A stretch of 32,000 nucleotides of DNA from Candidatus Electrothrix sp. GW3-4. GTDB lineage: Bacteria; Desulfobacterota; Desulfobulbia; Desulfobulbales; Desulfobulbaceae. Within the stretch, counting starts at the first letter, position 1. Each line of letters begins with the position of its first letter. The notes beneath the pieces were generated by a model. That model had not been told where the DNA came from, ran no database searches, and saw only the letters and a list, made by a program, of their open reading frames with translations. Positions 6,043 through 31,252 of the stretch are shown in pieces. The position numbers and the translations under genes are program-made. Location of the stretch: NCBI RefSeq assembly GCF_037902255.1, contig NZ_CP147990.1:3480001-3512000 (forward strand), given 5' to 3'.

Positions 6043-8087
6043 ATCGGGTCAGAGGGAGCCGAAGCTCCCGTCTGCCCACAGAACCGTGCGTACGGGTCCG
6101 TACACGGCTCCTCATGTTATACTCTTATCCATCGATGAAGAGGTAACCAGTGCGAATGCTTTTGATCTGACCGTATCTCTTGTCCCTTTTCCTGGATGAA
6201 CCAAGCAACAGGGTATGCTTTTTCTAACGCAAAAGTATGAGATAAGGCCCATCGACCATTATTCGAAAATGCCGCGTTTGCTGCACTCTTTCGGCTCACC
6301 CCTCTTTTCTTCAGCTTCTTGAACAGATGGCGACGCCTTTTCTGTTGATCCACCAGACGCGCACGGAGTCTTCTCCGTATATGCGCTTCGATTTTGCTGA
6401 GTTGAGATGGATATTCCGTCATCCGATAATACCCGGCCCAACCGACATACCAACGGTTTATCCGCTTAATCGTTTTCTCCAGCGGCAGATACGTGCCTCG
6501 CGGTGTCAACTCTTTGACTTTCTGCATGGCCGTTTTCATCGATTTCGCTGAAATAGCCAGCGTTCCTTCAATGATAGTCATTCCGAGAAATTTTACCTCG
6601 CTGGAATGAGCGACCCTGCTCTTATCACGGTTGATCTTCAGCTTGAGTTTCTTTTCAATAAATTTACTGATACTGCTCATGACACGCTCTGCCGCTTTGG
6701 GCGAGCGAACATAGATATTGCAATCATCAGCAAAGCGGCAAAACTCAAGCCCCCGCCGTTCAAGCTCCTTGTCCAGTTCATCAAGCACTACATTGCTCAA
6801 CAGCGGACTCAGAGGGCTTCCCTGGGGAGTGCCTTTCTCACTGAGCATTACATCACCGTCCTTCATTATCCCGCTCCGCAGAATCATGCCGATTAAACGG
6901 AGTACCCGTTTATCATCCACATGCCCTGAAAGAAGATAAATCAAACGATCATGGTTCACTCGGTCGAAAAATTTCGACAAGTCGATGTCCACCACATACT
7001 CTTTCCCGCTCTTCACAATCCGCTGGCCGGATTCCACCGCCTGACGTTGACTACGTCCGGGACGAAAACCAAAGCTGTGATCGGAAAATACCGGATCAAG
7101 TATGGGCTCCAAAAGCTGTTTGATCGTCGCATGAACAACCCTGTCTTTTACGCAGGGTACCCCAAGCAAACGAACACCTGCACCTTTGCCCGGCTTGGGT
7201 ATTTCAACCCGTTGCACCGGACTCGGTTTATACCTCCAGCCTGCAAGTTCTTCCGCAAGCTGTTCTATCTCTTCTTTCAGGCTGCTGCCGAATTCTTCGA
7301 CCGTTACCCCGTCTACTCCGGGAGAGCCGCCGTTCTTCTTCACTGCCTTGAAACCTGCACGCAAAAATCGCACGTCGCAGAGTTTCTCAAAGAGACTTCT
7401 TTCATCAACAAACAGTTCCCTTTGTCTCATTTCACCTTCCATTTTGCGCTGTTATTTCATCACTCCGCACAGTCTCTGTTGTCATCGGAAGTATACGTAT
7501 CCGCTTCAAAGACAGTTCCTACGGCTGAGCTCATAACAACATCTATTCTGAGAGTCCGGTTCTGATAACATGTTCCGCCCTTCGGCTCCGGCATTGCTGC
7601 CACTTTCCGATAGTTTTACCCTCAGATACGTCACCGCATCCTCATCGGCTATCGATTTTACGCCTACTATGGCTTCATCTGAAAACCCTCTGTCCATAAC
7701 AGAAACATTGCTGCTCCGCTTAGGGCACGGCTGTCGCAGTTACAACCGGCCCGGCATACAGACGGCTCTTCACCGGGTAAGATCACGAGCTTTCATTGCC
7801 CACCCACCTCCTCTACTCTACGGAATACGGAAAGGATATCGGGCTTCGGCAGTCGAGGTTGCCTCGCCCTTTCCGTAAAGCCTGCCAGAGGTTCGCACCG
7901 AGCTTGGGTGACAAATTTGATTCAGGCTTCCTTCAGATCCGTCATTGGCTCACAGTTACCGGGATATCCCTCCTCGGGCAGCTCCTGTGAGTTTCTTCAG
8001 GCACCCTTACCTTCGTCTACATATTCCCTCCTTTCAGGGGTTATGGCTGGACTTGCACCAGCTAGTTCGTGACCATGCCGGTCACAC
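6043..8087 (-). mobile_element. Group II intron, copy 1 (2,045 bp)
   Basis: On the minus strand the 5' end reads GUGUGACCGGCAUGG (plus-strand CACAC at 8083-8087). Domain V is at 6081-6110 (GAGCCGUGUACGGACCCGUACGCACGGUUC) with the AGC triad and a 2-nt bulge. Domain VI is at 6043-6077 with a UUCG loop and a bulged A at 6049, 7 nt from the 3' end. The intron ends ...CCCGAU. The RT/maturase ORF lies in domain IV. Confidence 0.95.
6117..7442 (-). CDS. Group II intron reverse transcriptase/maturase (no endonuclease domain)
   Basis: RT motifs RVEIPKPGKGAGVRLLGVPCVKDRVV, FGFRPGRSQ, VVDIDLSKFFDRVNH, QGSPLSPLLSNV and FADD (FCRFADDCNIYV). The maturase/X region is RINRWYVGWAGYY. At 441 aa there is no HNH/En domain after X. 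The ORF stops 6 nt before domain V. Confidence 0.97.
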   Translation of the reverse strand: MEGEMRQRELFVDERSLFEKLCDVRFLRAGFKAVKKNGGSPGVDGVTVEEFGSSLKEEIEQLAEELAGWRYKPSPVQRVEIPKPGKGAGVRLLGVPCVKDRVVHATIKQLLEPILDPVFSDHSFGFRPGRSQRQAVESGQRIVKSGKEYVVDIDLSKFFDRVNHDRLIYLLSGHVDDKRVLRLIGMILRSGIMKDGDVMLSEKGTPQGSPLSPLLSNVVLDELDKELERRGLEFCRFADDCNIYVRSPKAAERVMSSISKFIEKKLKLKINRDKSRVAHSSEVKFLGMTIIEGTLAISAKSMKTAMQKVKELTPRGTYLPLEKTIKRINRWYVGWAGYYRMTEYPSQLSKIEAHIRRRLRARLVDQQKRRRHLFKKLKKRGVSRKSAANAAFSNNGRWALSHTFALEKAYPVAWFIQEKGQEIRSDQKHSHWLPLHRWIRV

Positions 8088-9530: not shown

Positions 9531-11575
9531 ATCGGGTCAGAGGGAGCCGAAGCTCCCGTCTGCCCACAGAACCGTGCGTACGGGTCCGTACACGGCTCCT
9601 CATGTTATACTCTTATCCATCGATGAAGAGGTAACCAGTGCGAATGCTTTTGATCTGACCGTATCTCTTGTCCCTTTTCCTGGATGAACCAAGCAACAGG
9701 GTATGCTTTTTCTAACGCAAAAGTATGAGATAAGGCCCATCGACCATTATTCGAAAATGCCGCGTTTGCTGCACTCTTTCGGCTCACCCCTCTTTTCTTC
9801 AGCTTCTTGAACAGATGGCGACGCCTTTTCTGTTGATCCACCAGACGCGCACGGAGTCTTCTCCGTATATGCGCTTCGATTTTGCTGAGTTGAGATGGAT
9901 ATTCCGTCATCCGATAATACCCGGCCCAACCGACATACCAACGGTTTATCCGCTTAATCGTTTTCTCCAGCGGCAGATACGTGCCTCGCGGTGTCAACTC
10001 TTTGACTTTCTGCATGGCCGTTTTCATCGATTTCGCTGAAATAGCCAGCGTTCCTTCAATGATAGTCATTCCGAGAAATTTTACCTCGCTGGAATGAGCG
10101 ACCCTGCTCTTATCACGGTTGATCTTCAGCTTGAGTTTCTTTTCAATAAATTTACTGATACTGCTCATGACACGCTCTGCCGCTTTGGGCGAGCGAACAT
10201 AGATATTGCAATCATCAGCAAAGCGGCAAAACTCAAGCCCCCGCCGTTCAAGCTCCTTGTCCAGTTCATCAAGCACTACATTGCTCAACAGCGGACTCAG
10301 AGGGCTTCCCTGGGGAGTGCCTTTCTCACTGAGCATTACATCACCGTCCTTCATTATCCCGCTCCGCAGAATCATGCCGATTAAACGGAGTACCCGTTTA
10401 TCATCCACATGCCCTGAAAGAAGATAAATCAAACGATCATGGTTCACTCGGTCGAAAAATTTCGACAAGTCGATGTCCACCACATACTCTTTCCCGCTCT
10501 TCACAATCCGCTGGCCGGATTCCACCGCCTGACGTTGACTACGTCCGGGACGAAAACCAAAGCTGTGATCGGAAAATACCGGATCAAGTATGGGCTCCAA
10601 AAGCTGTTTGATCGTCGCATGAACAACCCTGTCTTTTACGCAGGGTACCCCAAGCAAACGAACACCTGCACCTTTGCCCGGCTTGGGTATTTCAACCCGT
10701 TGCACCGGACTCGGTTTATACCTCCAGCCTGCAAGTTCTTCCGCAAGCTGTTCTATCTCTTCTTTCAGGCTGCTGCCGAATTCTTCGACCGTTACCCCGT
10801 CTACTCCGGGAGAGCCGCCGTTCTTCTTCACTGCCTTGAAACCTGCACGCAAAAATCGCACGTCGCAGAGTTTCTCAAAGAGACTTCTTTCATCAACAAA
10901 CAGTTCCCTTTGTCTCATTTCACCTTCCATTTTGCGCTGTTATTTCATCACTCCGCACAGTCTCTGTTGTCATCGGAAGTATACGTATCCGCTTCAAAGA
11001 CAGTTCCTACGGCTGAGCTCATAACAACATCTATTCTGAGAGTCCGGTTCTGATAACATGTTCCGCCCTTCGGCTCCGGCATTGCTGCCACTTTCCGATA
11101 GTTTTACCCTCAGATACGTCACCGCATCCTCATCGGCTATCGATTTTACGCCTACTATGGCTTCATCTGAAAACCCTCTGTCCATAACAGAAACATTGCT
11201 GCTCCGCTTAGGGCACGGCTGTCGCAGTTACAACCGGCCCGGCATACAGACGGCTCTTCACCGGGTAAGATCACGAGCTTTCATTGCCCACCCACCTCCT
11301 CTACTCTACGGAATACGGAAAGGATATCGGGCTTCGGCAGTCGAGGTTGCCTCGCCCTTTCCGTAAAGCCTGCCAGAGGTTCGCACCGAGCTTGGGTGAC
11401 AAATTTGATTCAGGCTTCCTTCAGATCCGTCATTGGCTCACAGTTACCGGGATATCCCTCCTCGGGCAGCTCCTGTGAGTTTCTTCAGGCACCCTTACCT
11501 TCGTCTACATATTCCCTCCTTTCAGGGGTTATGGCTGGACTTGCACCAGCTAGTTCGTGACCATGCCGGTCACAC
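9531..11575 (-). mobile_element. Group II intron, copy 2 (2,045 bp, reads identical to copy 1)
   Basis: Same sequence as 6043-8087 shifted by exactly 3,488 bp. All six-frame ORFs in the track are duplicated with identical protein strings. The flanks diverge immediately outside both ends. Confidence 0.95.
9605..10930 (-). CDS. Group II intron reverse transcriptase/maturase (copy 2)
   Basis: The 441-aa protein is identical to the ORF at 6117-7442. Confidence 0.97.
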   Translation of the reverse strand: MEGEMRQRELFVDERSLFEKLCDVRFLRAGFKAVKKNGGSPGVDGVTVEEFGSSLKEEIEQLAEELAGWRYKPSPVQRVEIPKPGKGAGVRLLGVPCVKDRVVHATIKQLLEPILDPVFSDHSFGFRPGRSQRQAVESGQRIVKSGKEYVVDIDLSKFFDRVNHDRLIYLLSGHVDDKRVLRLIGMILRSGIMKDGDVMLSEKGTPQGSPLSPLLSNVVLDELDKELERRGLEFCRFADDCNIYVRSPKAAERVMSSISKFIEKKLKLKINRDKSRVAHSSEVKFLGMTIIEGTLAISAKSMKTAMQKVKELTPRGTYLPLEKTIKRINRWYVGWAGYYRMTEYPSQLSKIEAHIRRRLRARLVDQQKRRRHLFKKLKKRGVSRKSAANAAFSNNGRWALSHTFALEKAYPVAWFIQEKGQEIRSDQKHSHWLPLHRWIRV

Positions 11576-20483: not shown

Positions 20484-20493
20484 GCTTACAACA

Positions 20494-20512
20494 GGGCGAC
20501 CGCCGGTCGCCC
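20494..20512 (+). other. GC-rich hairpin 11 nt after the aminotransferase stop (terminator-like, no U-tract)
   Basis: GGGCGACC-gcc-GGTCGCCC, followed by CTACCC. Confidence 0.4.
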
Positions 20513-20648
20513 CTACCCAAGTATCATCCACCCTCCGTCCCGAACGTCTGCTCCAGCTTGTTGAGCAAGGCATCATCACGGGGCAGAGTGATATTGTCTT
20601 GACGGGCAAGGTGCTGGCTTTGCTTCCTTTATGCTGAATCGTTCTCAC

Positions 20649-20885
20649 CTTGTCAATCATGACAAAACATAAGATTTTTACCATCCTGCGATAGAAAAGC
20701 ATGGTTCTTCCCTGGTGCAGGACGATGCTGAACCTGTTTTACGGCGTCCTGCACCTCCTCTGAATCATTCAAAGGGAGGAAATCATGACGGTGCGCTATA
20801 ATTTTGCCATCATTCGGTAGTGTTTTGTCATGATTCGACACAAATTGATCATCATTCACAAGGGGACGGTCATTCTTCGATAGTG
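20649..20885. repeat. Repeat-dense non-coding module: 15-bp perfect inverted repeat pair, four tandem 21-bp units and further copies of a TTTTGYCATSATT motif
   Basis: AATCATGACAAAACA (20655-20669) is the exact reverse complement of TGTTTTGTCATGATT (20821-20835). Tandem units start at 20802, 20823, 20844 and 20865, and all share CAT..(A/C)TTC. Related copies are at 20676-20687, 20763-20774 and 20781-20793. Confidence 0.7.
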
Positions 20886-21035
20886 CAGAGCCGTTCAGCA
20901 CAGGGGGATGATGGTTCGTATCTTGTGACGGAAGATAATTCCCTGGAGGATAGCCCTTCGCCCCCTGTGACGCAGGATAATCCCCTTGGGGAGAATGCCT
21001 CGGATGCAGGGGAGGAAGGGGCGGAGAAGGGAAAG

Positions 21036-21347
21036 CTAGCTACGGAATTTGCGCATCTTCTTCACCAGCTCGTTGTCCTTGCCCAGCAGACCGGAAATCA
21101 GGTCGGCAACGTCGGAGGCATCCTTGTAAGCATCGGTAAGAGTCTCGTTGGCCTGGGTCGTGGCTTCCTGCGCCTTGGCAGCCGCTTCCTGCTGGGTGAT
21201 TTCCGCGCTGTCCGCATCCTGCTTTTTCACCTTGAGGCTGTCCAGCCGATCAGCCGGGTTGAAGCCCTTGTCTTGCAGGGTATCCTGCTCTTCTTGGACA
21301 AGCGAGATCATCTGCGCGATAAAATCGCGTTTTTCTGCTTCAGTCAT
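21036..21347 (-). CDS. Hypothetical 103-aa helical protein (Ala/Glu/Gln/Lys/Asp-rich), no family recognised
   Basis: Excellent SD AAGGAGA 6 nt before the ATG. Starts 35 nt after the stop of the 561-aa gene on the same strand. Confidence 0.75.
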   Translation of the reverse strand: MTEAEKRDFIAQMISLVQEEQDTLQDKGFNPADRLDSLKVKKQDADSAEITQQEAAAKAQEATTQANETLTDAYKDASDVADLISGLLGKDNELVKKMRKFRS

Positions 21348-21382
21348 TGTGCTCTCCTTGGTTTGAGGTTTTGGGTTGCGTT

Positions 21383-23068
21383 CTACGATGTTATATGTTT
21401 GAAGAGCAAGCCGGTTGGTGAGGCCCTCCGAGCTTTTTCCTTCACCGCAATCTCAGAAAACTTTGTTTTGATGTCTTTGAAGTTTGGTACTCCACCCGTC
21501 ATACCGAGGAGTGCTGAAGCCGCGCCAAGTTCTGGACTTCCGGTAAAGGCGGCAGTGACAGCTAATGTGCCGGTCGCAACAAAACTGCCGATATCGATCC
21601 CGTAAAGTTTCAGCTTTTTGCGTTTTGCCTCAAGCAATTTTTGTTGATGCTCACGGAATGCCTTGTCAATATTCTCTACTACTTGATCAGCGGTACGGAA
21701 ATAGTTGTTTGGGTTAACCTTGACAAGTTCACTGACACCGTGCCCTAAAATCTCTCGGATTTCTTCAGCATGTCCATGTTGACGAACCTCCAGAACAGTT
21801 TTCGGCGGAACGTTTCCAAGCCACGCCAAGTTGTTTTCACTTTCAGTAACAAGGGCGCGGGCGATATGCATACTTTGCTCGCGTCGTTCATCTATTGAAT
21901 GTGGGGCTGCGTTATATTCCAGCAGCCATGTGTAATAGAGCCAGGAGATCTCTGTATTGATCAACGGGGTTCCACCGAGGAGCAATGCATTATCCTGAGT
22001 GGCGAGTGCCTGAAGTGTTCGATCAGCACATGCATTTAATACATGGTGCCCAGCAATTCTAGAATCTAAGTCCGGTCTCACAATAGGGTACTCGGATATT
22101 AGACCATGTAATTGCGCATGTGGATTCCGATTCCATCCAGCAGAGAATAGGAATTTGTCAGCACCTTTGATCTCACGCAAAACTTGCTCAACTGTAGTCA
22201 GGCTGTTGCAAAAGTCTTTGAAATACTCAATTGAGTCAAAATCACGTCCAAAGAGGTATTGAGCATGTTTCAACATTGCAGGTTCGGAACGTTTTCCTAT
22301 ATGCTGAATGCAAGTTCTCTCTATCTCATTGGTATTCGCTAGCACTAAGGCGATCGGGGGATTTATGTCAGCTATTGCCAGCTCCCGATAGGACATGGCT
22401 GTAAGAACATGCTCCACAACCATCTCAGTGAACTCTTGGGCTGGCATAGCCTTCAGTAGAGGAGCTGTGCGCATGACTGGACATGGCAAAATAATGGTAT
22501 CGATGTACAGCCCTGCGGTGGAGACTACATTTTCCCGATATGAGGGAAACAAGTCACCTGCAAAGGTCGCCTTGAGTTGCCGCCCATCTTGGAGATGATA
22601 TGCGCCTGCATCGCTGACAGATTGCCAAAACTCCTTTAACTGCTCGGCAATTTCAGGAATGACAGATACGATTTGCTTTACAAATTTTGAATCCTGAGCC
22701 ATCCCCATTGCAACTTGTTCTGGCGTTGCTCCCGCTTTGCTCATCTGTTCATAGAGCCATCCAAGCTGATCGAAGAGAAAAGAGAAATAGGTGTCTTGAA
22801 TCTGCGCCAGACTTACAGCTTCTTTTGCCTTTTCTCTTTGTTTCATACCCCAAATAGCCAATGTCGCACTCCGTATACGTCCGTCAACCGAGTTCGGATC
22901 AACTAAGCCATCCGGGCGAAGGCGCACTGCGGACCAGCTTCGCATGAAATCGTCGGCGAGGTGCGGTGCAAGATGCATTTCTCCACCCTCAATCTTTTCT
23001 TTAAGCAGAAAAACTCTATCAGTGAGGTCTTGAATTTCTTCTTCTGTGTATGTTTTTGAAGACATCAC
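21383..23068 (-). CDS. Hypothetical 561-aa protein, no family recognised; C-terminal Gly/Ala/Thr-rich hydrophobic hairpin
   Basis: Long uninterrupted ORF with AGGA upstream of GTG 23068 / ATG 23065. No P-loop, HExxH, DxD or nuclease motif was seen. The C-terminus reads YGIDIGSFVATGTLAVTAAFTGSPELGAASALLGMTGGVPNF. Confidence 0.9.
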   Translation of the reverse strand: MMSSKTYTEEEIQDLTDRVFLLKEKIEGGEMHLAPHLADDFMRSWSAVRLRPDGLVDPNSVDGRIRSATLAIWGMKQREKAKEAVSLAQIQDTYFSFLFDQLGWLYEQMSKAGATPEQVAMGMAQDSKFVKQIVSVIPEIAEQLKEFWQSVSDAGAYHLQDGRQLKATFAGDLFPSYRENVVSTAGLYIDTIILPCPVMRTAPLLKAMPAQEFTEMVVEHVLTAMSYRELAIADINPPIALVLANTNEIERTCIQHIGKRSEPAMLKHAQYLFGRDFDSIEYFKDFCNSLTTVEQVLREIKGADKFLFSAGWNRNPHAQLHGLISEYPIVRPDLDSRIAGHHVLNACADRTLQALATQDNALLLGGTPLINTEISWLYYTWLLEYNAAPHSIDERREQSMHIARALVTESENNLAWLGNVPPKTVLEVRQHGHAEEIREILGHGVSELVKVNPNNYFRTADQVVENIDKAFREHQQKLLEAKRKKLKLYGIDIGSFVATGTLAVTAAFTGSPELGAASALLGMTGGVPNFKDIKTKFSEIAVKEKARRASPTGLLFKHITS

Positions 23069-23364
23069 TGTTCATCCTGAGAGTTGATATGTTTGATCTG
23101 GAGCTGCTGTGTTCGGGAAGGCATGGCGTTCTCCTGATTGAGGAAATATTTGCCGGAAGAAGAGAAGTATCCTGAAAAGATACCCAATAATCAGCATCGG
23201 TTCAATATACTTCTCAATCTTTTCGAGCTGGAAAAACGGCATGCTTCATATACCCAAAAAAAAGACACTTCGCGTACTCCTCATCTTGCCTTCCCTCTCT
23301 CCTCATATCATGCTATACCATAGGGCATGCTAGCAACCTACCAACCAAAACGTTGACACACCCA

Positions 23365-23829
23365 ATGGATCTCTTAGCAGAATTCTCCCAACTTGTTCAT
23401 GAACTCAACAAAGAACAGATAGACTATGCCCTTTGCGGTGGTCTGGCTATGGCAGTCTATACATTTCCTCGGGCAACGCTTGATATTGATATCCTGATTG
23501 AGCCGGAGAGCCTGGAACAAACCAAAAAGATCGCCGAACGGCTTGGATTCGACTTTGATGCTGGCTTGATGCGTTTGAGCGGAGATGCAATACAAATCTA
23601 CCGACTGACGAAAACAGCACCGGATAAGGGCGACACCTTGATGCTGGATATGCTGCTGGTGACTCTGGAAATGACAACCGTCTGGGAAAGCAGGCAAAGG
23701 GTTTCCTGGGAAGGAGGAAAGCTACCAGTGGTTTCTCCAAGGGGGCTTATCGAATTAAAATCAAAACGACTGAGCGGTCAGGATCAGGATGATATCACGA
23801 ATCTGCGGAGCTTATTAGATGAAGACTGA
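23365..23829 (+). CDS. Minimal nucleotidyltransferase-fold protein (pol-beta superfamily)
   Basis: YALCGGLAMAVY...LDIDILI fits the hG[GS]-x(9-13)-DhD NTase signature. The C-terminal LIELKSKRLSGQDQDDITNL resembles the KxxxGRxKDxxD tail common in small NTases. The start is either the ATG at 23365 or the track's TTG at 23353. No clear SD. Confidence 0.75.
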   Translation: MDLLAEFSQLVHELNKEQIDYALCGGLAMAVYTFPRATLDIDILIEPESLEQTKKIAERLGFDFDAGLMRLSGDAIQIYRLTKTAPDKGDTLMLDMLLVTLEMTTVWESRQRVSWEGGKLPVVSPRGLIELKSKRLSGQDQDDITNLRSLLDED

Positions 23830-24007
23830 CATGAGCCCGGAGGCAGTTACTGCACGGCTAAAAAAAACAAGCGAGCTGAGAAGCTTATGCATCTCATTAG
23901 GTGGCGACAGATTAAAAAAAGAGCTACTGAAAAAGGCTACTGTGCGAGCAAAGCAGGTAGAACAACAGTCTCAGCATGACAGGATAGCCCACCTAACACA
24001 GGACTGA
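23819..24007 (+). CDS. Small hypothetical protein (62 aa, or 58 aa from the ATG at 23831), overlapping/abutting the NTase stop
   Basis: The ATG at 23819 overlaps the NTase 3' end by 11 nt. The alternative ATG at 23831 lies 1 nt after the TGA. The protein is basic and helical (MSPEAVTARLKKTSELRSLCISLGG...). Confidence 0.5.
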   Translation: MKTDMSPEAVTARLKKTSELRSLCISLGGDRLKKELLKKATVRAKQVEQQSQHDRIAHLTQD

Positions 24008-24156
24008 CGTTAAACAAAACCGCTCCACATCCACCAACCCTCTATCTGTCGTCTTCAACTCCAGAATAACCGGCAAGGCCATAAAAGAAAGCTGCATGAT
24101 ATAAAGAGAGGTCCGCTCTCCTTGAAGGAGTAGAGATTGAAATAAAATGACTATTT

Positions 24157-25326
24157 TCACTCAGACCGCAAAGCCGTAATAGGATCCAGCTTGGCCGCCT
24201 TATGAGCAGGGTAAAAACCGAAGAAAATGCCGACCAGTGATGAAACGCCTACCCCCAGCCAAATGCCCATCTTAGGCATAAAAAAGGTCCATTCATTGAC
24301 GGAGCAGACAATATAACAGGCCAGAATCCCTAACCCTGCCCCTAAAACGCCCCCGATCAGAGAAAGAAGAACGGCCTCGGTTAAAAATTGACGACGAATA
24401 TCGCGCTGCCTTGCCCCGATGGCACGGAGAATACCAATTTCCCGACGTCGATCAATCACGGAGGTGAGCATGACATTCATAATGCCGACTCCACCGACTA
24501 AGAGAGAAATTATACTGATAATACCGAGCAATAAGGTCTGCATAGATGCCTGCTCTCTAATTTCCTCAATCCTTTGTTCATTCGCTCGCACGTGAACTTT
24601 CATGTCTGCCTGCGGTTTGCTCTGCTTGAAATATTCTTCAATTTCCTTGGTTGCAACCCGAAAATCTACATTTGGTCGCATTCTGGCGAGTACATAATTC
24701 ACATGCTTCACACCCAAATGACGGGTTGCGGTAGAGATAGGCATAATAATCGACCGATTAGCAGACCAATCATGGGTTGTTCTCTCCAGCGTGCCAATTA
24801 TCGTATACGGTCTGTTATTTAACCTCATCACACTTCCGACGTATTTATCACTCCCCCCCTTAAACTCCTCTTCATCCAACGCTGCTGCACCAATAACCAC
24901 ATAGGACTTGTCCTTGTCCAGCGACGAGATAAACCTTCCTGCTTTGATATGCAACCTACTCATAGCCTTGTGCGAGGAAATGGTCCCTATAATACCAACC
25001 ATTCCCTGTTGACCGCGAAAATGGTACTCAAGATAACCGGTAATAACCGGTAGCACTTCTGCAAGGGTCTGACTCCGCTCAAGCAAAGAGGACGCATCTT
25101 CCAGCGTGACCCCTTCATAATTTTTCTCGGAATAGACCCAAATCTTCAAAATATCAGGACCTGCCTCAGAAACCTTACGAAGCATCTCCTCACCCCAGAT
25201 AATGCCGATGGAAACCAGGGCAATCACAGCACCAATAGCAATGCTGATACCGATTAAGGCCAACAGGGTTCGCTGTTTCGCGGTATACAGGCTGCGGACC
25301 GCTTCTCGCACATAGGTCAACAACAT
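24157..25326 (-). CDS. ABC transporter permease, MacB/FtsX (LolC/DevC-like) family
   Basis: The start is moved to the ATG at 25326, 2 nt after the ATPase stop (MLLTYVREAVRSLY...). An N-terminal TM helix, a large periplasmic domain, then 3 TM helices. The C-terminus YPAHKAAKLDPITALRSE is typical of FtsX-type permeases. Confidence 0.93.
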   Translation of the reverse strand: MLLTYVREAVRSLYTAKQRTLLALIGISIAIGAVIALVSIGIIWGEEMLRKVSEAGPDILKIWVYSEKNYEGVTLEDASSLLERSQTLAEVLPVITGYLEYHFRGQQGMVGIIGTISSHKAMSRLHIKAGRFISSLDKDKSYVVIGAAALDEEEFKGGSDKYVGSVMRLNNRPYTIIGTLERTTHDWSANRSIIMPISTATRHLGVKHVNYVLARMRPNVDFRVATKEIEEYFKQSKPQADMKVHVRANEQRIEEIREQASMQTLLLGIISIISLLVGGVGIMNVMLTSVIDRRREIGILRAIGARQRDIRRQFLTEAVLLSLIGGVLGAGLGILACYIVCSVNEWTFFMPKMGIWLGVGVSSLVGIFFGFYPAHKAAKLDPITALRSE

Positions 25327-25328
25327 GG

Positions 25329-25991
25329 CTACCGCAACACCCCATCTTCTATAACCACATGGCGGGAACATTGCCGGGCAATCTTCTCATCATGGGTGAT
25401 GATAATAATGGTCATGCCCTCTTCCTGATTGAGGCGTATGAACAGGTCCATGATCTCTTTACTCACATGGGAATCCAGGGCACCGGTGGGTTCATCGGCA
25501 AGGACGATTGCCGGGTTACCGATTAAGGCACGGGCAATGGCAACACGCTGCTGCTGACCACCGGACAACTCATCAGGACGATGGGTGGCACGATCAGCCA
25601 ACCCCATTTTCTCTAGCATCGCCAAAGAACGGCGATGTATTTCCTTGGGCGGCACCTTGCTGTAGCGGAGCGGACAGCCAATATTTTCAAGAGCTGTCAG
25701 GCGTTGCAGGAGATAGAACGACTGGAAGACAAAGCCTATTTTCTGATTTCGCATCGCAGCGAGTTCATCATCACTGCAATGCTGCACCTCCTTATTATCC
25801 AGCCAGTATCGCCCGCGTGTCGGTTTATCCAGCAGCCCCATAATGCTCATCAAGGTAGATTTGCCGCTTCCCGAAGAACCGGTAACTGCCAGCAGGTCCC
25901 TCTGCTGAACATCAAGATTAATCCCCTTGAGGACAGGCATCATCTCCTGACCGACCTGATAGGACTTGTACAGATCACGTATTTTCAGCAT
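25329..25991 (-). CDS. ABC transporter ATP-binding protein (MacB/LolD/DevA-like)
   Basis: Walker A GSSGSGKST, signature LSGGQQQRVAIARAL, Walker B VLADEPTGALD, H-loop IIITHD. Confidence 0.97.
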   Translation of the reverse strand: MLKIRDLYKSYQVGQEMMPVLKGINLDVQQRDLLAVTGSSGSGKSTLMSIMGLLDKPTRGRYWLDNKEVQHCSDDELAAMRNQKIGFVFQSFYLLQRLTALENIGCPLRYSKVPPKEIHRRSLAMLEKMGLADRATHRPDELSGGQQQRVAIARALIGNPAIVLADEPTGALDSHVSKEIMDLFIRLNQEEGMTIIIITHDEKIARQCSRHVVIEDGVLR

Positions 25992-26044
25992 AATGTTTCA
26001 TGGCTGCATTCGACAAAAATTTCTTAATGTAAAGAGATACCGCA

Positions 26045-26066
26045 AGGGTACGGCATGCCGTACCCT
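26045..26066. repeat. 22-bp perfect palindrome between the adaptor and ATPase genes
   Basis: AGGGTACGGCA|TGCCGTACCCT. It overlaps the adaptor stop codon (26065-26067) by 2 nt. Confidence 0.9.
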
Positions 26067-27495
26067 ACAACGGAGGCAGCAGGGGCTCCCGCATAATCTT
26101 GTCGCCAACCTCAAGCCCTTCAAGGATCTCCACGGTATTGGCCTCAGTCACCCCGATTTTCACCGGAACCTTCTTCGACTTGCCGCTTTCTTCAACAACC
26201 TTCCTTACCCATCCCTGTTTTTTCTCATCAACCGTAACAAAGGCAAAGGGGATAATAATGGTGTCCGGTTTCTCTGAAAGAAGTACTTCCATGTCTGCTG
26301 ACATCCCCAGGAGCAGGCGTTTTTTCTGTTCTTCGCTTGGCGAGTCCACGGAAATACGCGCGGAAAAAGATGAGGCCTTTCCCTTCTCCTGTTTATCCGC
26401 CTGAAAGGAAATATACTGGACCGTCCCCTTCAGGATTAGATCATCCTGAAAGGCATCTCCTGTTATAGTGACCTCCTGCCCCAGCTGGAGCTTCAGGATA
26501 TCATTTTCATCCACTTGCGCTCGGATATTGAACCCGCTCAAATCGGCAATGGTGAACAGTACCTGGTCCTGCTCCACAAAGCTCCCAGGCTGAATCTCAA
26601 CCGATTCTTCATTCTTGCGGCTGACAGGCAAGAGAATAACCCCATCCATAGGGCTGATCAGATGCGCCTTTGCCATACGTTCCTCAAGAACCTTCATTGC
26701 CAGAAAGGCATTTTCTTTTTTGAGCTCTACCAGATGCACCTTTTCTTCACTGCCCTTCTCCAGGGTATAAGCGAGTTTTTTCTTTGTGAATGCAATATCA
26801 CTCTGCAGCTCCTGATAACGCTCCTCAAGCTCATCCACCTCTGAGCTTGATACAATCCCCTTCTGGAGCAAACGTCGCGTTTGTTCTAATTTGGTTCGAG
26901 TAGTTTTCAGTTCGTCTTGTTTTCTCGCCAACTCATGCCGTACTGTAACAACCTCTAGACCTTCTTCCCAATTCCTCAAGGATTTCAAAGTATCTTCCGC
27001 CTCCAGATACTCCGCCTGCGCTTTCCGATACTTAGTCTCTTCATTACTGGTATCAAGAGTCAGCAGCAAGGTATCTTTTGTGACAAAATCTCCGTACTGG
27101 AACCTTTTCTCCAACACCTTCCCTTCCAAAGGGGCAACTACTTCAATTTGCCCGAGAGGCTCAATCTTCCCCGTAAGCGAAAGGGTATTGCGCAAGGTCT
27201 GTCGCTTAACCGTCACAACCGCATCTTTGGGATTATCTCCTTTCTGGGCCTTCTCTGAACCGCCAGGAAGCAAAGAGGATAACTCTCCGCGCCAGAAATA
27301 ACCACCGATCCCGACTCCCACGATAATCAGGAACAGAAAGAACAGCCTATAGCGCCGCCTGACCCGCTTGAGCTGCTGCTGCAAGACAACATGCTCATCT
27401 TCTAGCTGATAATAATTCGCCTGCAACTGATGATATTTCTCCTCAAGATCAGCTTCATCAGCTTCCTTTCCCAAAGACTTCTGTGCGTCACTCAC
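26065..27495 (-). CDS. HlyD/MacA/DevB-family periplasmic adaptor (membrane fusion protein)
   Basis: N-terminal cytoplasmic coiled segment, one TM helix (LFFLFLIIVGVGIGGYF), a long coiled-coil hairpin, and beta-barrel/lipoyl-like regions. The GTG start overlaps the TolC stop (GTGA). Confidence 0.9.
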   Translation of the reverse strand: MSDAQKSLGKEADEADLEEKYHQLQANYYQLEDEHVVLQQQLKRVRRRYRLFFLFLIIVGVGIGGYFWRGELSSLLPGGSEKAQKGDNPKDAVVTVKRQTLRNTLSLTGKIEPLGQIEVVAPLEGKVLEKRFQYGDFVTKDTLLLTLDTSNEETKYRKAQAEYLEAEDTLKSLRNWEEGLEVVTVRHELARKQDELKTTRTKLEQTRRLLQKGIVSSSEVDELEERYQELQSDIAFTKKKLAYTLEKGSEEKVHLVELKKENAFLAMKVLEERMAKAHLISPMDGVILLPVSRKNEESVEIQPGSFVEQDQVLFTIADLSGFNIRAQVDENDILKLQLGQEVTITGDAFQDDLILKGTVQYISFQADKQEKGKASSFSARISVDSPSEEQKKRLLLGMSADMEVLLSEKPDTIIIPFAFVTVDEKKQGWVRKVVEESGKSKKVPVKIGVTEANTVEILEGLEVGDKIMREPLLPPL

Positions 27496-28991
27496 GGCAA
27501 TTCCACCTTAGGTGCATTTGCAGGATCAATCCCCCAATGCTCCAATGTTGTGCCCAAATACCTATCCAACGCGGTCAAGGTATTAAGATAGTCAATTTTC
27601 GCCTTATTCTCACTGTGTTCCGATGCAATCAAGCTGTTCTGATAGGAAACGACCTGAAAGTTATCCGACTTATCGTTTTTAAACTTTTCCAACTCCACAT
27701 CAAGCTGTTTTTGCGCTAAGTCCCGAGCCTTTTGAGAGAGTTCAACCTGCTTCCATTTCATGCCAATATCCCGATACATATCCTGGACGGAGATCCCTAC
27801 ATTCTCTCTCAGCTCTTTTAAGTCTATCTCTGCTTTTCGACAGCCCACTTTAGCAGAGAGAAGGTCACGTTTTGTCGATTCATCGCCAAAGGGAATCTCC
27901 AGTTTCATGGCAACGAGATAATCACCAGCACCGTCACTCTCCCCTTCTGAAGCATCTCCAGTATATGCACTGGAATCAGTCATGTTATACTGAGCCTCCA
28001 GGTCTAATTGCCAACGTTGTTCATTCTCTGCTAATAACAGATTGGTTTGAGCCACCTTCAAGATGACCAGGGCCTTCTGGTATTCCAGATTATTTTTCAA
28101 AGCAATATCCAACAGGGTTTCCTCTTTCATCTGAACCGGTTCAACTTCGATTGACTCCGTAGGCTCTATAGAAATATGTCGATCAATATCAAGCAGCTTG
28201 AGCAAATTCAATTTTTTCGTTTCAACATCATTCTGGCTTACCATAAAGCTAAGCTCCTGACTCGCTACATTTGCTTCCGTCTCAATGAGTTCTACCTTGG
28301 CCTTGCGCCCCTCCTCGATTAAGATCCTGTTTCTCTCCAACAGATCTTTGGATCGTTCAAGAGATAAACGGTTAATCTCCAGTCCCCGCTGAGCCAGAAG
28401 AAAGCTCCGATAGGCAGAGACGACCTGGGTAATCGTGTCTATTAACGTTTCTTGTAAGCGCAGCAGATTGGTTCGTTCCTCATATTCCGCCAGGACCTGG
28501 GAGGCCCTGTTCACCTGGATACCCCCTCCCTTCAGAAGGGGTTGGGAGAAAGAGAGAATGACATCATTGCCAAGGCCATCAAACCATTGATCATCCTGTG
28601 ATGTATGGACTGGCTGGGTCCAGGTTAGGCTAAACTCTCCGCCGGTCGGCACCTTCAAACGGGCCTCACCACCAACTTCTGTCCGGTGTAAAGCCTCCCC
28701 GGTTGTCCTTTCCTGCGCAGCTGAAGAAAAAAGAGCAAAGTCCGGCAAAAACTCATCTTGGGCGATTTTCAAATCAAACCGCTCCAGGAGACGATCAAGA
28801 TAGGCGCTTTCCACAGTACGATTATGACGTAAGGCTAAGGTGACCGCCTCTGCCAAGGTCATGGGTTGTCGTGTTTGCTGGGAAGACTCCGCAGCTGCCC
28901 TTCCACAAAGAAGAGTAAAGGACAGTACAAGAAAGACGAAGGGCACCAGAACTCGCTTATTTTCCTGACATAATTTCGAGATATAAGACAT
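27492..28991 (-). CDS. TolC-family outer-membrane efflux protein
   Basis: The start is moved to the ATG at 28991 (MSYISKLCQENKRVLVPFVFLVLSFTLLCGRAAAESS, a signal peptide). Two OEP-type repeats with long helical segments. Confidence 0.9.
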   Translation of the reverse strand: MSYISKLCQENKRVLVPFVFLVLSFTLLCGRAAAESSQQTRQPMTLAEAVTLALRHNRTVESAYLDRLLERFDLKIAQDEFLPDFALFSSAAQERTTGEALHRTEVGGEARLKVPTGGEFSLTWTQPVHTSQDDQWFDGLGNDVILSFSQPLLKGGGIQVNRASQVLAEYEERTNLLRLQETLIDTITQVVSAYRSFLLAQRGLEINRLSLERSKDLLERNRILIEEGRKAKVELIETEANVASQELSFMVSQNDVETKKLNLLKLLDIDRHISIEPTESIEVEPVQMKEETLLDIALKNNLEYQKALVILKVAQTNLLLAENEQRWQLDLEAQYNMTDSSAYTGDASEGESDGAGDYLVAMKLEIPFGDESTKRDLLSAKVGCRKAEIDLKELRENVGISVQDMYRDIGMKWKQVELSQKARDLAQKQLDVELEKFKNDKSDNFQVVSYQNSLIASEHSENKAKIDYLNTLTALDRYLGTTLEHWGIDPANAPKVELP

Positions 28992-29165
28992 AACGAAGCC
29001 CCCTGCCCAAAAGTTACAGGGCATCAGGATATTTTTTGATATACACCGTTGGCGTATTGACCTGCGGACTTCGCGACAAAACGATCTGAAGGCAGCGAGC
29101 ATCCACAGGCGAGGAAGGACGATAAAAGAACAGGTAGAAAAACGCTACCTAATGTTGCTTGAGAA

Positions 29166-30506
29166 CTACCAGCGTGTCTCCTCAATATTCAGGTGACGGT
29201 TACAGCATCTGGTGTAATAGCGGGCAACCTGGTCTTGTTTGCATTTGACGGTACACTCATCAAACAGGTATTTTGCCTCAGCGAATCGTCCTGAGTGATA
29301 CAGGTTCACCGCCTTTACAAAGATATGGAGGGATGCCAACTTGGCCTCTTTGACCTCTGGAGGATCGTTATCAAAAACTTCATATACGGTGACTGTTTTT
29401 GACTTTCCCTTTGCCTTGAATTGATCGATACGGCGCAGCGCAAAATCACCAGGCTTTTCCAGGGAGTTATAGGTCTCCTCACCGATCAGCAACGAAGTCC
29501 GGTAAATCTTATTCACCCCTTCGATACGCGCGGCAACGTTCACGGAATCACTGACAACGGTCCCCTCCATACGCATGGGACTCCCCACAGTGCCCAGCAT
29601 CAGGGTACCGGTGTTAACGCCGATGCTAATGTCTATTGGCTTGTAGCCAGCCTTCCCTCTCCCAATATTATACGAGACCAGCTGCCGCAACATACCGACT
29701 GCGGCTCTGACCGCATCATCGGTCTTGCCATCGAACAAGGCCATAACGGCATCGCCGATATACTTATCAATAAACCCGTTATTCCGGGTAATGATCGGCT
29801 CCATGATGCTCAGGTAGGAGTTCATGAACCTGAAATTCTCTGTGGGGGTTATACTTTCTGAGAGTCGGGTAAAATCGACAATATCGGAAAACAGGACGGT
29901 CATGGAGCGTTCCACATGGTCGCCCAGCTCGATATCGGTAATGCTGGGTTTTTCCAGATATTCAAGAAAACGCTGGGGAACAAAACGACGATAGGCGGTA
30001 TTGAGCTCTTCAAGGTAGCGGGCGTTCTCCTCTTCCCGATATTTTTCCTGCGTAATATCAAGAAAGGACACGATATAGTCAGTCACCTCTCCCAGGCTAT
30101 CTTTCACTGTGCTGACATGCAGTCTGCTCACATAGATGGCGCCGCTTTTACTGACGTCCTTCAATTCTCCTCGCCAATGCTCCTGCTCTTGCAGACTATC
30201 AAGGACCTGCTGGGCAAAGGCCTCATCTTCCAGCCAGGAAAGCTTCCTGCCCACCACCTCATCGGGCTGGTAACCGGTTATCCGGGTAAAGGCACGATTC
30301 ACCCGCAGGACGCGGAAGGCAGCGTCCGTGATAATGGTTCCCTCAACGCTACTGGCAAAGACCTCAGCTGTAAGCCGCAGCTCTTGCCGAATCTTGTCCA
30401 GCTCATCCTGTAAGCGAAGCACCTTACGGTCAAGACGATGGACCTGCTCACGATAATCATCGCATTCAGGGCTGAGTTTTTTGATTTTCTTCCTGATATC
30501 AGACAA
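29166..30506 (-). CDS. PAS-domain class III adenylate/guanylate cyclase
   Basis: N-terminal coiled coil and a PAS domain (GTIITDAAFRVLRVNRAFTRITGYQPDEVVGRKL). Cyclase core MTVLFSDIVDFTRL ... KYIGDAVMALF ... GTVVSDSVNVAARIE. TTG start with GGAG 9 nt upstream. Confidence 0.92.
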   Translation of the reverse strand: MSDIRKKIKKLSPECDDYREQVHRLDRKVLRLQDELDKIRQELRLTAEVFASSVEGTIITDAAFRVLRVNRAFTRITGYQPDEVVGRKLSWLEDEAFAQQVLDSLQEQEHWRGELKDVSKSGAIYVSRLHVSTVKDSLGEVTDYIVSFLDITQEKYREEENARYLEELNTAYRRFVPQRFLEYLEKPSITDIELGDHVERSMTVLFSDIVDFTRLSESITPTENFRFMNSYLSIMEPIITRNNGFIDKYIGDAVMALFDGKTDDAVRAAVGMLRQLVSYNIGRGKAGYKPIDISIGVNTGTLMLGTVGSPMRMEGTVVSDSVNVAARIEGVNKIYRTSLLIGEETYNSLEKPGDFALRRIDQFKAKGKSKTVTVYEVFDNDPPEVKEAKLASLHIFVKAVNLYHSGRFAEAKYLFDECTVKCKQDQVARYYTRCCNRHLNIEETRW

Positions 30507-30706
30507 AATGAGCAGCTCCGTCCCAACGGGCGGTGGTCAATATGATAGGCAACAGTCAGCGCGGGCTATCAGCCCCCCGGCACCTCGCAATACATTTTCT
30601 TCCATAACAGCAGCAACCAAGGGACTAATTATCTTATTCTAGCATATCATTTCATGACTTCGCCAGTTTAAAGCGCGTTGGGGTTCGTCCCTGTTTTTTA
30701 GCAATG

Positions 30707-30972
30707 AAAGGCCCAGCACAGAGGTCTTCCGCAGAATTGCCCTGCTGGGCTTATCGTGGCTGAGGGATGGTTGAAAACCCCGGCAATTCGTGCTGAAATC
30801 GAATTAGATGAATGGGTGGTGATGCCCAATCATTTTCACGGGATTGCGGTGAGTAGGGATATGGGAGCGACAAATCGGCATGGTGCGAAAAAGCAAAATA
30901 CGGGGTTCACCGTCGGGCCGATGACCGACCGGGCGAACGATGTTCCTGGCGATTTAACGGGCGACCGCCGTA
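30707..30972 (+). pseudogene. Fragment of a REP-associated tyrosine transposase (RAYT / IS200-like Y1 family)
   Basis: ...PAGLIVAEGWLKTPAIRAEIELDEWVVMPNHFHGI carries the HUH motif (HFH) and its usual preceding context. The N-terminal ~50 aa and the C-terminal catalytic-Tyr region are absent. The rest of the track ORF (30756-31040) has no RAYT-like sequence. The exact frame around the C-run near 30777-30781 should be rechecked. Confidence 0.55.
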
Positions 30973-31152
30973 CTCAAACAACATCTGGTTCAGGGGTACA
31001 CCTTGCATCAAAAACGGCTGGCGGAAAAGGGTGCTGCTGAGATCAGGCAGGTGCTGGACTTATTGAGCAACACCTTGGAAAACCACGATCTGGTCAGCGA
31101 TGACGGCAGGATACCTGAGCTGACAGAAGTACGGGAGGCGGGCGCTCCCTGA
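30973..31152 (+). pseudogene. Internal fragment of a RhuM-like (virulence RhuM family) gene
   Basis: Hand translation LKQHLVQGYTLHQKRLAEKGAAEIRQVLDLLSNTLENHDLVSDDGRIPELTEVREAGAP*. It resembles, from memory, the L..L..GY.LN.KRL...G..E......L..TL..H.LVTDEG segment of RhuM-family proteins. There is no start codon and no N-terminal domain. Confidence 0.4.
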
Positions 31153-31252
31153 TGATCAAGCCTTGGTCGCCTCCAGCGCACCGGAGCAAAAAGACCTGCT
31201 TATCCGCTTGGCGGTTAATCTGATAAGCGTCTGAAACCGCCCTGCGGACAGC

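Follow-up and report, generated by a model that had tools for sequence, protein, structure and literature searches.

A candidate single-gene anti-phage protein with a DitB-like core in a variable gene array of a cable bacterium

The 32,000-nt stretch of the genome of the cable bacterium Candidatus Electrothrix sp. GW3-4 considered here (contig NZ_CP147990.1, positions 3,480,001 to 3,512,000; hereafter the window, whose coordinates are used throughout) contains a gene for a 560-aa protein and, downstream of it, a gene for a 103-aa protein. An earlier, sequence-only reading of this locus had described the large gene as an orphan that forms an operon with the small one and resembles abortive-infection effectors. 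On balance, we lean towards reading the large protein as a DitB-like candidate anti-phage protein that is encoded by a solitary gene and belongs to a widespread, mobile-element-borne family named by no library or paper searched. The features of the locus are listed below; all those of the large gene are on the minus strand.

21383 to 23065, minus strand: coding sequence of the 560-aa protein (stop codon at 21383–21385; from the list of open reading frames), member of a widespread unnamed single-gene family
22838 to 23020, minus strand: Avs1C-like N-terminal segment, approximately residues 16–76 (weak similarity)
21929 to 22651, minus strand: DitB-like core, approximately residues 139–379 (hhalign, PADLOC DitB model, conserved motifs)
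21491 to 21598, minus strand: predicted hydrophobic helical hairpin rich in Gly, Ala, Ser and Thr, residues 490–525 (translation, alignment, structure model)
23065 to 23124, minus strand: 19-codon leader open reading frame (MPSRTQQLQIKHINSQDEQ, then stop), 5 nt behind AGGAGA, ATG at 23124
23075 to 23235, minus strand: conserved leader/promoter region of a variable gene array (blastn match to 554–722 of the related locus L033)
21036 to 21347, minus strand: 103-aa gene, adjacent, of an unrelated family
23072 to 23242, minus strand: 56-codon open reading frame, ending 3 nt before the GTG of the large frame; rejected as a gene

The positions and spacing of the three open reading frames (ORFs) that had been proposed, of the large protein, the 103-aa protein and 56 codons, were confirmed from the sequence. 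The large ORF opens with a GTG followed by an ATG, and its full extent is 21383 to 23068, with the GTG at 23068 as an alternative start. Because every homolog begins at the ATG, the true start is taken to be the ATG at 23065 and the product to be 560 aa long; a database copy (P0001) has the same length and is 100% identical. The orphan status proposed for the large gene does not hold. At least 400 close, full-length homologs were retrieved by a word-indexed search (about 555–561 aa, 52–90% identity) from Ca. Electronema, Burkholderia, Ralstonia, Aeromonas, Pseudomonas, Xanthomonas, Cupriavidus and others, and an exhaustive profile search yielded 688 clusters (50% identity), of which 245 had E < 1e-30. 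All listed homologs are annotated as hypothetical, and none has a Pfam domain. The distribution is patchy: no more than 17 loci came to light in 185,579 species-representative genomes, in beta-, gamma- and alphaproteobacteria and in cable bacteria. Copies of the gene are also carried on plasmids.

Conservation was analyzed in an alignment of 32 sequences and in one of 86 diverse sequences with identities down to 21%. In both, it is strong over the entire length of the protein. The invariant or near-invariant polar residues are R65, Q90, H157, K165, D189, T190, R349, T373, S374, R428, R437 and N465, and the most conserved motifs, EFW, LKAxFGGDxFP, GLYxDTIxLP(C/D)P, PPIxxxxP and GTPLI(D/N)AxTSW, are located in the core. 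The ratio of nonsynonymous to synonymous substitution rates (dN/dS) relative to two cable-bacterium relatives, L033 and L006, is 0.15–0.19, indicating that the gene is under purifying selection. One of the 17 loci, in Pseudomonas capeferrum (L028, 10013–11158), holds a decaying pseudogene, truncated to residues 124–466 and split by a frameshift.

The window protein has no significant match in the Pfam, NCBIfam, PHROG or PADLOC libraries; no PDB sequence was matched by the protein itself or by the profile of the family, and a Pfam scan of the 86 members revealed no recurrent weak family. The initial observation that the protein lacks recognizable catalytic motifs therefore holds. Literature searches by member accession retrieved no paper, nor did we find any on the mechanism of Aditi, DitB or Avs1C.

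The N-terminus of the family is variable. Some members are 700–840 aa long and carry, in place of the first 40–75 residues, an N-terminal domain of about 200 aa of an unrecognized type (P0246, P0282, P0284, P0287, P0291, P0295, P0299 and P0307; P0210 is also named among them). This extension domain of about 190–200 aa occurs on its own as well, in proteins of 173–197 aa that give no functional clue. P0272 has instead an extension of about 300 aa with a helix-turn-helix-like stretch (one marginal helix-turn-helix match in PADLOC). None of the N-terminal extensions matched Pfam, and apart from the P0272 stretch the PADLOC matches of the long members are confined to the shared DitB-like and Avs1C-like parts. 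These sequence comparisons point to a modular N-terminus subject to domain swapping, a pattern common in immune sensors.

The core is linked to a known defense protein. Aditi, which consists of DitA and DitB, is a validated two-gene anti-phage system whose proteins contain no recognizable domains (Millman et al. 2022, bioRxiv 10.1101/2022.05.11.491447). When the alignment of 86 members was compared by hhalign with two DitB sequences from the supplement of that study, the profiles aligned over 221 columns with a probability of 88.9% and an E-value of 2.4e-6, matching window residues 139–379 with DitB residues 36–269. The PADLOC DitB model matched 33 of the 86 members (best E 1.1e-10) and an Escherichia coli homolog at E 5.3e-10 over its residues 195–451. 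The aligned regions share an FW, a strand-loop containing (D/C)P, I-x-I-L-P, and a G-x-x-x-Q-x-x-D...P-x-I helix-strand element, and the family, like DitB, has no recognizable domain. By these profile comparisons the core of the family, and the core alone, is remotely homologous to DitB. DitB, at 361–372 aa, lacks both the N-terminal region of about 135 aa and the C-terminal region of about 180 aa (stalk helix and hydrophobic hairpin) that are present in the family. Aditi requires an adjacent ditA gene, whereas the large gene has no conserved neighbor over 24 loci. A tblastn search with two DitA queries against 57 loci produced no significant match to a DitA-like ORF, and no DitA similarity was detected inside the large protein (hhalign probability 0.2% for the 86-member alignment against DitA). 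Given the absence of DitA, the large gene is not an Aditi system. The Aditi loci in the tables of that study include both Firmicutes and Proteobacteria, in contrast to the mainly proteobacterial and Desulfobulbales distribution of the family.

A weak similarity was found at the N-terminus. The PADLOC Avs1c model (PDLC02160) matched the window protein at E 0.018 and 40 of the 86 members at E ≤ 1 (best 5.3e-7); the corresponding NCBIfam model, NF041811, scored 13.4 bits against a cut-off of 70. Avs1C differs in being a stand-alone protein of about 63–86 aa, the third protein of AVAST type 1 systems alongside Avs1A and Avs1B, and no Avs1A/Avs1B-type or STAND NTPase neighbor recurs at the family loci. 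Falling below the curated cut-off and resembling Avs1C only over about residues 16–76 of 560, the large protein is, as judged by these scores, not an Avs1C. A weak similarity to LeoBC in the C-terminal part of 4 of the 86 members (E ~1e-3) was set aside as probably compositional.

Structure prediction was carried out with AlphaFold2. A first model built from 32 close sequences (predicted local distance difference test score, pLDDT, of 72) gave weak matches to cyclodipeptide synthases (E ~0.5), which were lost with a better model. The latter, based on the diverse alignment, has a pLDDT of 92.1 and a predicted TM-score (pTM) of 0.87. The structure search that the sequence-only reading had proposed as a check was run on this second model, and Foldseek matched no known fold: no hit at E ≤ 0.001 was obtained in the PDB (best 0.45, TM ≤ 0.2) or in BFVD. 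The model comprises an N-terminal helical domain extending to about residue 160, followed by an α/β core with large helical insertions, whose β-strands are formed by residues 165–169, 190–193, 239–241 and 366–369. In the C-terminal part, a 54-residue helix (455–508) runs into the first hydrophobic segment and is followed by a short helix (511–523), an amphipathic basic helix (529–547) and the SPxGLLF end. The hairpin is predicted with a pLDDT of 76–80, compared with about 95 for the body. A Gly-rich loop after the first strand is conserved in the diverse alignment, and conserved polar residues lie near the predicted ends of strands. Together, the modeled positions of the loop and these residues are suggestive of a pocket for a ligand, which might be a nucleotide.

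The two hydrophobic segments of the tail, GSFVATGTLAVTAAFTG and LGAASALLGMTGG, and the basic stretch after them, which had been noted from the sequence, are present in the translation. The tail consists of basic residues, a hydrophobic segment of 17–20 residues, a G/S-x-P turn, a second hydrophobic segment of 12–16 residues, P-K-x-K-D, an amphipathic helix and SPxGLLF. This architecture is kept in all 86 diverse members, even at 21% identity, and thus is not a chance feature. The median net charge of the flanks is +3 upstream and +2 downstream of the hairpin. The maximum Kyte-Doolittle value over 19 residues is 1.39 in the window protein, with a family median of 1.63, and 48 of the 86 members are at or above the usual threshold of 1.6. 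The Pfam Gly-zipper models matched neither the window protein nor any of the 86 members at E ≤ 1. The proposed glycine-zipper-like hairpin stands as a conserved, small-residue-rich hairpin with a basic flank. By simple hydrophobicity scales the tail is a conserved but only marginally hydrophobic hairpin, unlike a constitutive transmembrane anchor.

Pore-forming colicins contain a buried Ala/Gly-rich helical hairpin, and some abortive-infection effectors end in transmembrane helices at the C-terminus. The architecture of the family, a globular body followed by a hydrophobic, small-residue-rich helical hairpin of about 35 residues with basic flanks, is similar. The family differs from these proteins in having neither sequence nor fold similarity to them and in that insertion of its hairpin would be marginal by simple scales. 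By analogy with colicin-type hairpins, the tail would be better explained as a membrane-active element that is buried or latent than as a constitutive anchor.

The genomic settings of the family were then compared. A tblastn search identified an E. coli homolog, WP_148119620.1, which is 41% identical to the window protein and was first encountered on small replicons that are P2-like phage genomes. By megablast, 17 of the 5426 complete E. coli genomes searched carry the gene. At the three chromosomal loci inspected among these 17 carriers (L032, L054 and L055), it is situated between gpA/DinI-like genes and the portal gene gpQ. In strains E371 and ECCNB20-2 the gpA–gpQ interval carries no other cargo, and in strain UR21/11-869 the gene shares the slot with a SIR2 and ATPase pair. 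Two small P2-like replicons of one E. coli strain have the same setting, between a DinI-like gene and a capsid gene. In IMG/VR, 14 loci encode homologs with 27–43% identity, and at least 9 of the 14 abut a P2-type portal gene (homologs at these loci, 34–43%). The portals beside them are only 50–87% identical to the E. coli portal or to each other, so the association recurs across divergent P2-like phages. The gpA–gpQ interval of P2 prophages is an anti-phage hotspot that has been studied by experiment and harbors old, tin and other systems, according to the portion of the work covered here (Rousset et al. 2022, PMC9122126); in that portion, the family is not recognizable among the systems described for the hotspot. 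The window copy differs in being chromosomal in a cable bacterium and not within a P2 prophage, and the hotspot location applies to its homologs only.

Outside P2-like phages, homologs are found next to OLD-TOPRIM and UvrD genes (Gabija-like), a PLD-helicase and Phd/PIN pairs in Xanthomonas, near an Mrr endonuclease and a resolvase at another locus, in an integrase-bounded island between mutS and recA in Aeromonas, and with a DUF4238 protein and an IS256 element on a Photobacterium plasmid. A survey of the 80 nearest neighbors from 15 additional loci identified a type IIG restriction-modification enzyme (E 0), ThsA (1e-201), Old (1e-194) and retron-type reverse transcriptases (1e-175), as well as AriA/PtuA/LmuB-like ATPases, integrases, TrwB/TrwC and a transposase.

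From the hotspot location, the defense genes nearby and the DitB-like core, single-protein defense against phages or other mobile elements is the most likely role of the family. The earlier abortive-infection-type reading is thereby supported as far as a role in defense or conflict is concerned; the small partner that it included is not. The comparisons above establish membership in the family, organization as a single gene, the hotspot and defense-island setting, purifying selection, homology to DitB and conservation of the tail; we infer a defense function, sensing by the body and membrane action of the tail. In the mechanism that we envisage, a soluble or peripheral globular body, composed of the Avs1C-like N-terminal module, the helical domain and the DitB-like α/β core with its conserved Lys/Asp/Thr/Arg/Ser pocket, would sense a phage-derived cue. 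The hairpin would be held at the end of the 54-residue stalk helix and, being only marginally hydrophobic, would probably not be inserted constitutively. Upon activation, it would enter the inner membrane or assemble there, and the ensuing collapse of the membrane would bring about abortive infection. The hairpin may be the effector, an assignment much less certain than the defense role itself. The full proposal, that of an unrecognized single-protein immune family which combines a DitB-like core of unsolved fold, an Avs1C-like module and a latent pore-forming hairpin, and which P2-like phages, plasmids and islands have disseminated through the Proteobacteria and into cable bacteria, is put forward tentatively, as a possibility that we hold with less than even confidence.

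Several observations weigh against this interpretation. The window protein alone is below the DitB model at E ≤ 1, so that the link runs through the family profile; moreover, as the mechanism of DitB is not known, the homology yields no mechanism. The plain Hessa-scale sum over the tail has a median of +4.8 and is ≤2 in only 4 of the 86 members, and the first hydrophobic segment carries an acidic residue in many members; the hairpin could instead be buried or form an oligomerization surface. Members are uniformly annotated as hypothetical, with no mention of the searched accessions in any paper. The gpA–gpQ hotspot also holds genes that do not serve defense (partition systems and cytolethal distending toxin, for instance), as described in the same portion of the hotspot study (PMC9122126), and many neighbors at the other loci are housekeeping genes.

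An alternative to latent pore formation is a constitutively membrane-anchored moron of a prophage or island that protects the cell without killing it. It might act by superinfection exclusion or an injection block, or be a DitB-like enzyme in which the hairpin serves as an anchor or oligomerization element. In favor of this alternative are the place of the gene as prophage-hotspot cargo, the positive charge at either side of the hairpin, which fits an in-in topology, the Kyte-Doolittle values of at least 1.6 in 48 of 86 members, and the modeled location of K165, D189, T190, R349, T373, S374, R428 and R437 near strand ends of the core, as in nucleotide-binding α/β domains. Against it are the marginal hydrophobicity on the Hessa-type scale, the lower pLDDT of the hairpin relative to the body, the lack of a signal or anchor feature elsewhere in the protein, and the lack of any match to a known enzyme fold or motif. 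We consider this explanation unlikely, although it deserves some weight.

It is less probable again that the gene is a mobile-element accessory outside phage defense, namely, an addiction or maintenance factor, an inter-bacterial toxin, or a hitch-hiker with a role in stress or physiology. The partly non-defense cargo of the P2 hotspot (in the portion of the study covered), the several loci with only housekeeping or unannotated neighbors, and the other cassettes of the array in which the window copy resides (Fic, cytochrome b and toxin-antitoxin genes, none of them a classical defense system) would be compatible with such a role. Against it stand the recurrence of the family at the P2 hotspot in divergent phages, the enrichment of bona fide defense genes among its neighbors, the homology of its core to a validated defense protein, and the lack of a secretion signal or an immunity-gene partner.

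A further explanation, that of an operon with a small partner, depends on the 103-aa gene. The 103-aa ORF begins 35 nt downstream of the large ORF on the same strand, and the strong Shine-Dalgarno sequence (SD) AAGGAGA that had been noted ahead of its start is indeed there, with a 5-nt spacer. No terminator-like site or hairpin was found on the minus strand between the two genes, so that they could be co-transcribed in this genome. In a local tblastn analysis of 57 loci, 49 contained a homolog of the large protein and 9 contained a homolog of the 103-aa protein (including L009, L034–L036 and L053), and the two co-occurred only in the window. All-against-all clustering of the flanking ORFs of 24 loci likewise identified no conserved neighbor of the large gene; the only recurring one was an unrelated Phd/PIN pair, at 4 loci. 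The neighborhoods of eight homologs are wholly different from each other, and the 81–91-aa ORFs found upstream of the gene in L001 and L002 did not cluster into a conserved family.

The 103-aa protein, which is rich in Ala, Glu, Gln and Lys, represents a small family of its own, with several paralogs per cable-bacterium genome. Its 51 homologs are mostly from Electrothrix and Electronema, and also from Marinilabiliaceae and Mangrovibacterium (Bacteroidota), a phyletic range different from that of the large-protein family. Orthologs with 90–92% identity, in E. scaldis and three metagenomic contigs, follow a 197-aa gene without a Pfam domain, which directly precedes the 103-aa gene at four loci. 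In Electronema sp. JC, a 72% identical homolog lies amid unrelated toxin-antitoxin genes, and in Mangrovibacterium a homolog is found in yet another context. The genes meet at sharp junctions. The match to the 103-aa cassette of L034 starts at window position 21381, immediately after the stop codon of the large gene, which assigns the 35-nt spacer and the SD to the 103-aa cassette. The blastn homology with L033, where the large gene is 90% identical, covers 23080–21374 and delimits the large-gene cassette; in L033, the large gene is directly followed by a repeat element (window 20493–20569), with no 103-aa gene in between. Genomic context thus identifies the large gene as a single-gene cassette and the 103-aa gene as a member of an adjacent, independent family, possibly co-transcribed here and not a conserved partner. 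A two-gene operon of the abortive-infection or toxin-antitoxin-like kind, with the 103-aa protein as antitoxin, regulator or chaperone, for which the short gap, shared strand, strong SD and lack of a terminator-like site would speak, is therefore highly improbable, being largely refuted by the co-occurrence data, the cassette junctions, the contexts of the 103-aa orthologs and the differing phyletic ranges.

The region upstream of the large gene suggests how that gene might be expressed. The 56-codon ORF that had been noted there is not conserved as coding sequence, its frame being interrupted by an in-frame TAG in the 90%-identical L033. In a different frame, the 19-codon leader ORF ends in a TGA that overlaps the ATG of the large gene (TGATG), and this stop/start overlap suggests translational coupling of the two. 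The sequence TCAATCAGGAGA-N5-ATG CCT TCC CGA ACA, which includes the first five leader codons (MPSRT), is invariant in the window, L033 and the E. scaldis locus L009. The leader ORF is 19 codons long in the window and 46 in L033, and in L009 the same SD, ATG and MPSRT codons open a different first gene, of 146 aa. By blastn, window positions 23109–23205 match 3487–3585 of L009. With the SD, ATG and MPSRT codons shared and the genes behind them different, it follows that different genes have been placed behind one resident expression signal. The large gene appears to use this resident promoter, SD and start codon by way of the leader ORF.

Comparison with L009, L033, L034 and L035 indicates that the region 20486–31250 is, in cable bacteria, a gene array of variable content. 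The E. scaldis array comprises, in this order, a PAS-cyclase gene (minus strand), the leader, the 146-, 282-, 197- and 103-aa and Fic genes (plus strand) and SLT_2 (minus strand); in L033, the large gene comes directly after the same leader and adjoins the PAS-cyclase gene. In the window, the interval between the PAS-cyclase gene and SLT_2 (30743–31124) contains only fragments, of the 197-aa gene (30743–30970) and of the Fic gene (30959–31124), and the block formed by the leader, the 560-aa gene and the 103-aa gene is found in inverted orientation some 7 kb from there, flanked by genes for an aminotransferase and a nucleotidyltransferase. On synteny, the neighborhood of the large gene is a shuffled variable array. 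Among the relatives, the conserved leader adjoins the PAS-cyclase gene, and the genes behind it include those of 146, 282, 197 and 103 aa, as well as cytochrome b, Fic/RhuM and PIN toxin-antitoxin pairs. A GC-rich palindrome, GGGCGACCGCCGGTCGCCC, is located at 20494–20512 (within 20486–20571), right after the aminotransferase stop codon, and the same REP-like hairpin, sometimes with a conserved 5′ extension of about 60 nt, is found between cassettes in L009, L033, L034, L035 and L036. This hairpin may be a terminator or a marker of recombination joints. An integron attC-like site was considered for 20486–20571; as the core is a simple GC-rich palindrome that occurs once in the window, the element was treated as REP-like.

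The remainder of the window contains several other features. Divergent from the large gene, a 158-aa nucleotidyltransferase-like ORF (23353–23829, plus strand), with sub-threshold matches to NTP_transf_5, AbiEii and DUF6036, is overlapped by 11 nt by a 62-aa ORF (23819–24007, plus strand); the two may form a toxin-antitoxin-like or defense-associated pair. On the minus strand, 24157–30506 encodes an efflux operon (a MacB/FtsX permease, an ABC ATPase, an HlyD-family adaptor and an outer-membrane factor) followed by the PAS-adenylate/guanylate cyclase gene, an unremarkable stretch that shares synteny with E. scaldis. A group II intron occurs twice (6043–7955 and 9531–11443, minus strand), in copies that are 3488 nt apart and have equal Rfam scores (RF00029, RF02001); each copy contains a 441-aa ORF (6117–7442 and 9605–10930), presumably the intron-encoded reverse transcriptase.

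The locus illustrates that tight spacing and a good SD do not by themselves make two genes partners, and the array to which it belongs is one in which different genes stand behind one fixed promoter, SD and start codon. If the large protein is truly a defense protein, it would constitute a compact, one-gene immunity module with a tractable E. coli representative already located in a validated prophage hotspot, and study of the family would provide the first mechanistic handle on Aditi, one of the few defense systems without recognizable domains or a known mechanism. Because the confident AlphaFold model has no match in the PDB or BFVD, a new fold would be at stake, and with it perhaps an effector principle of a new type.

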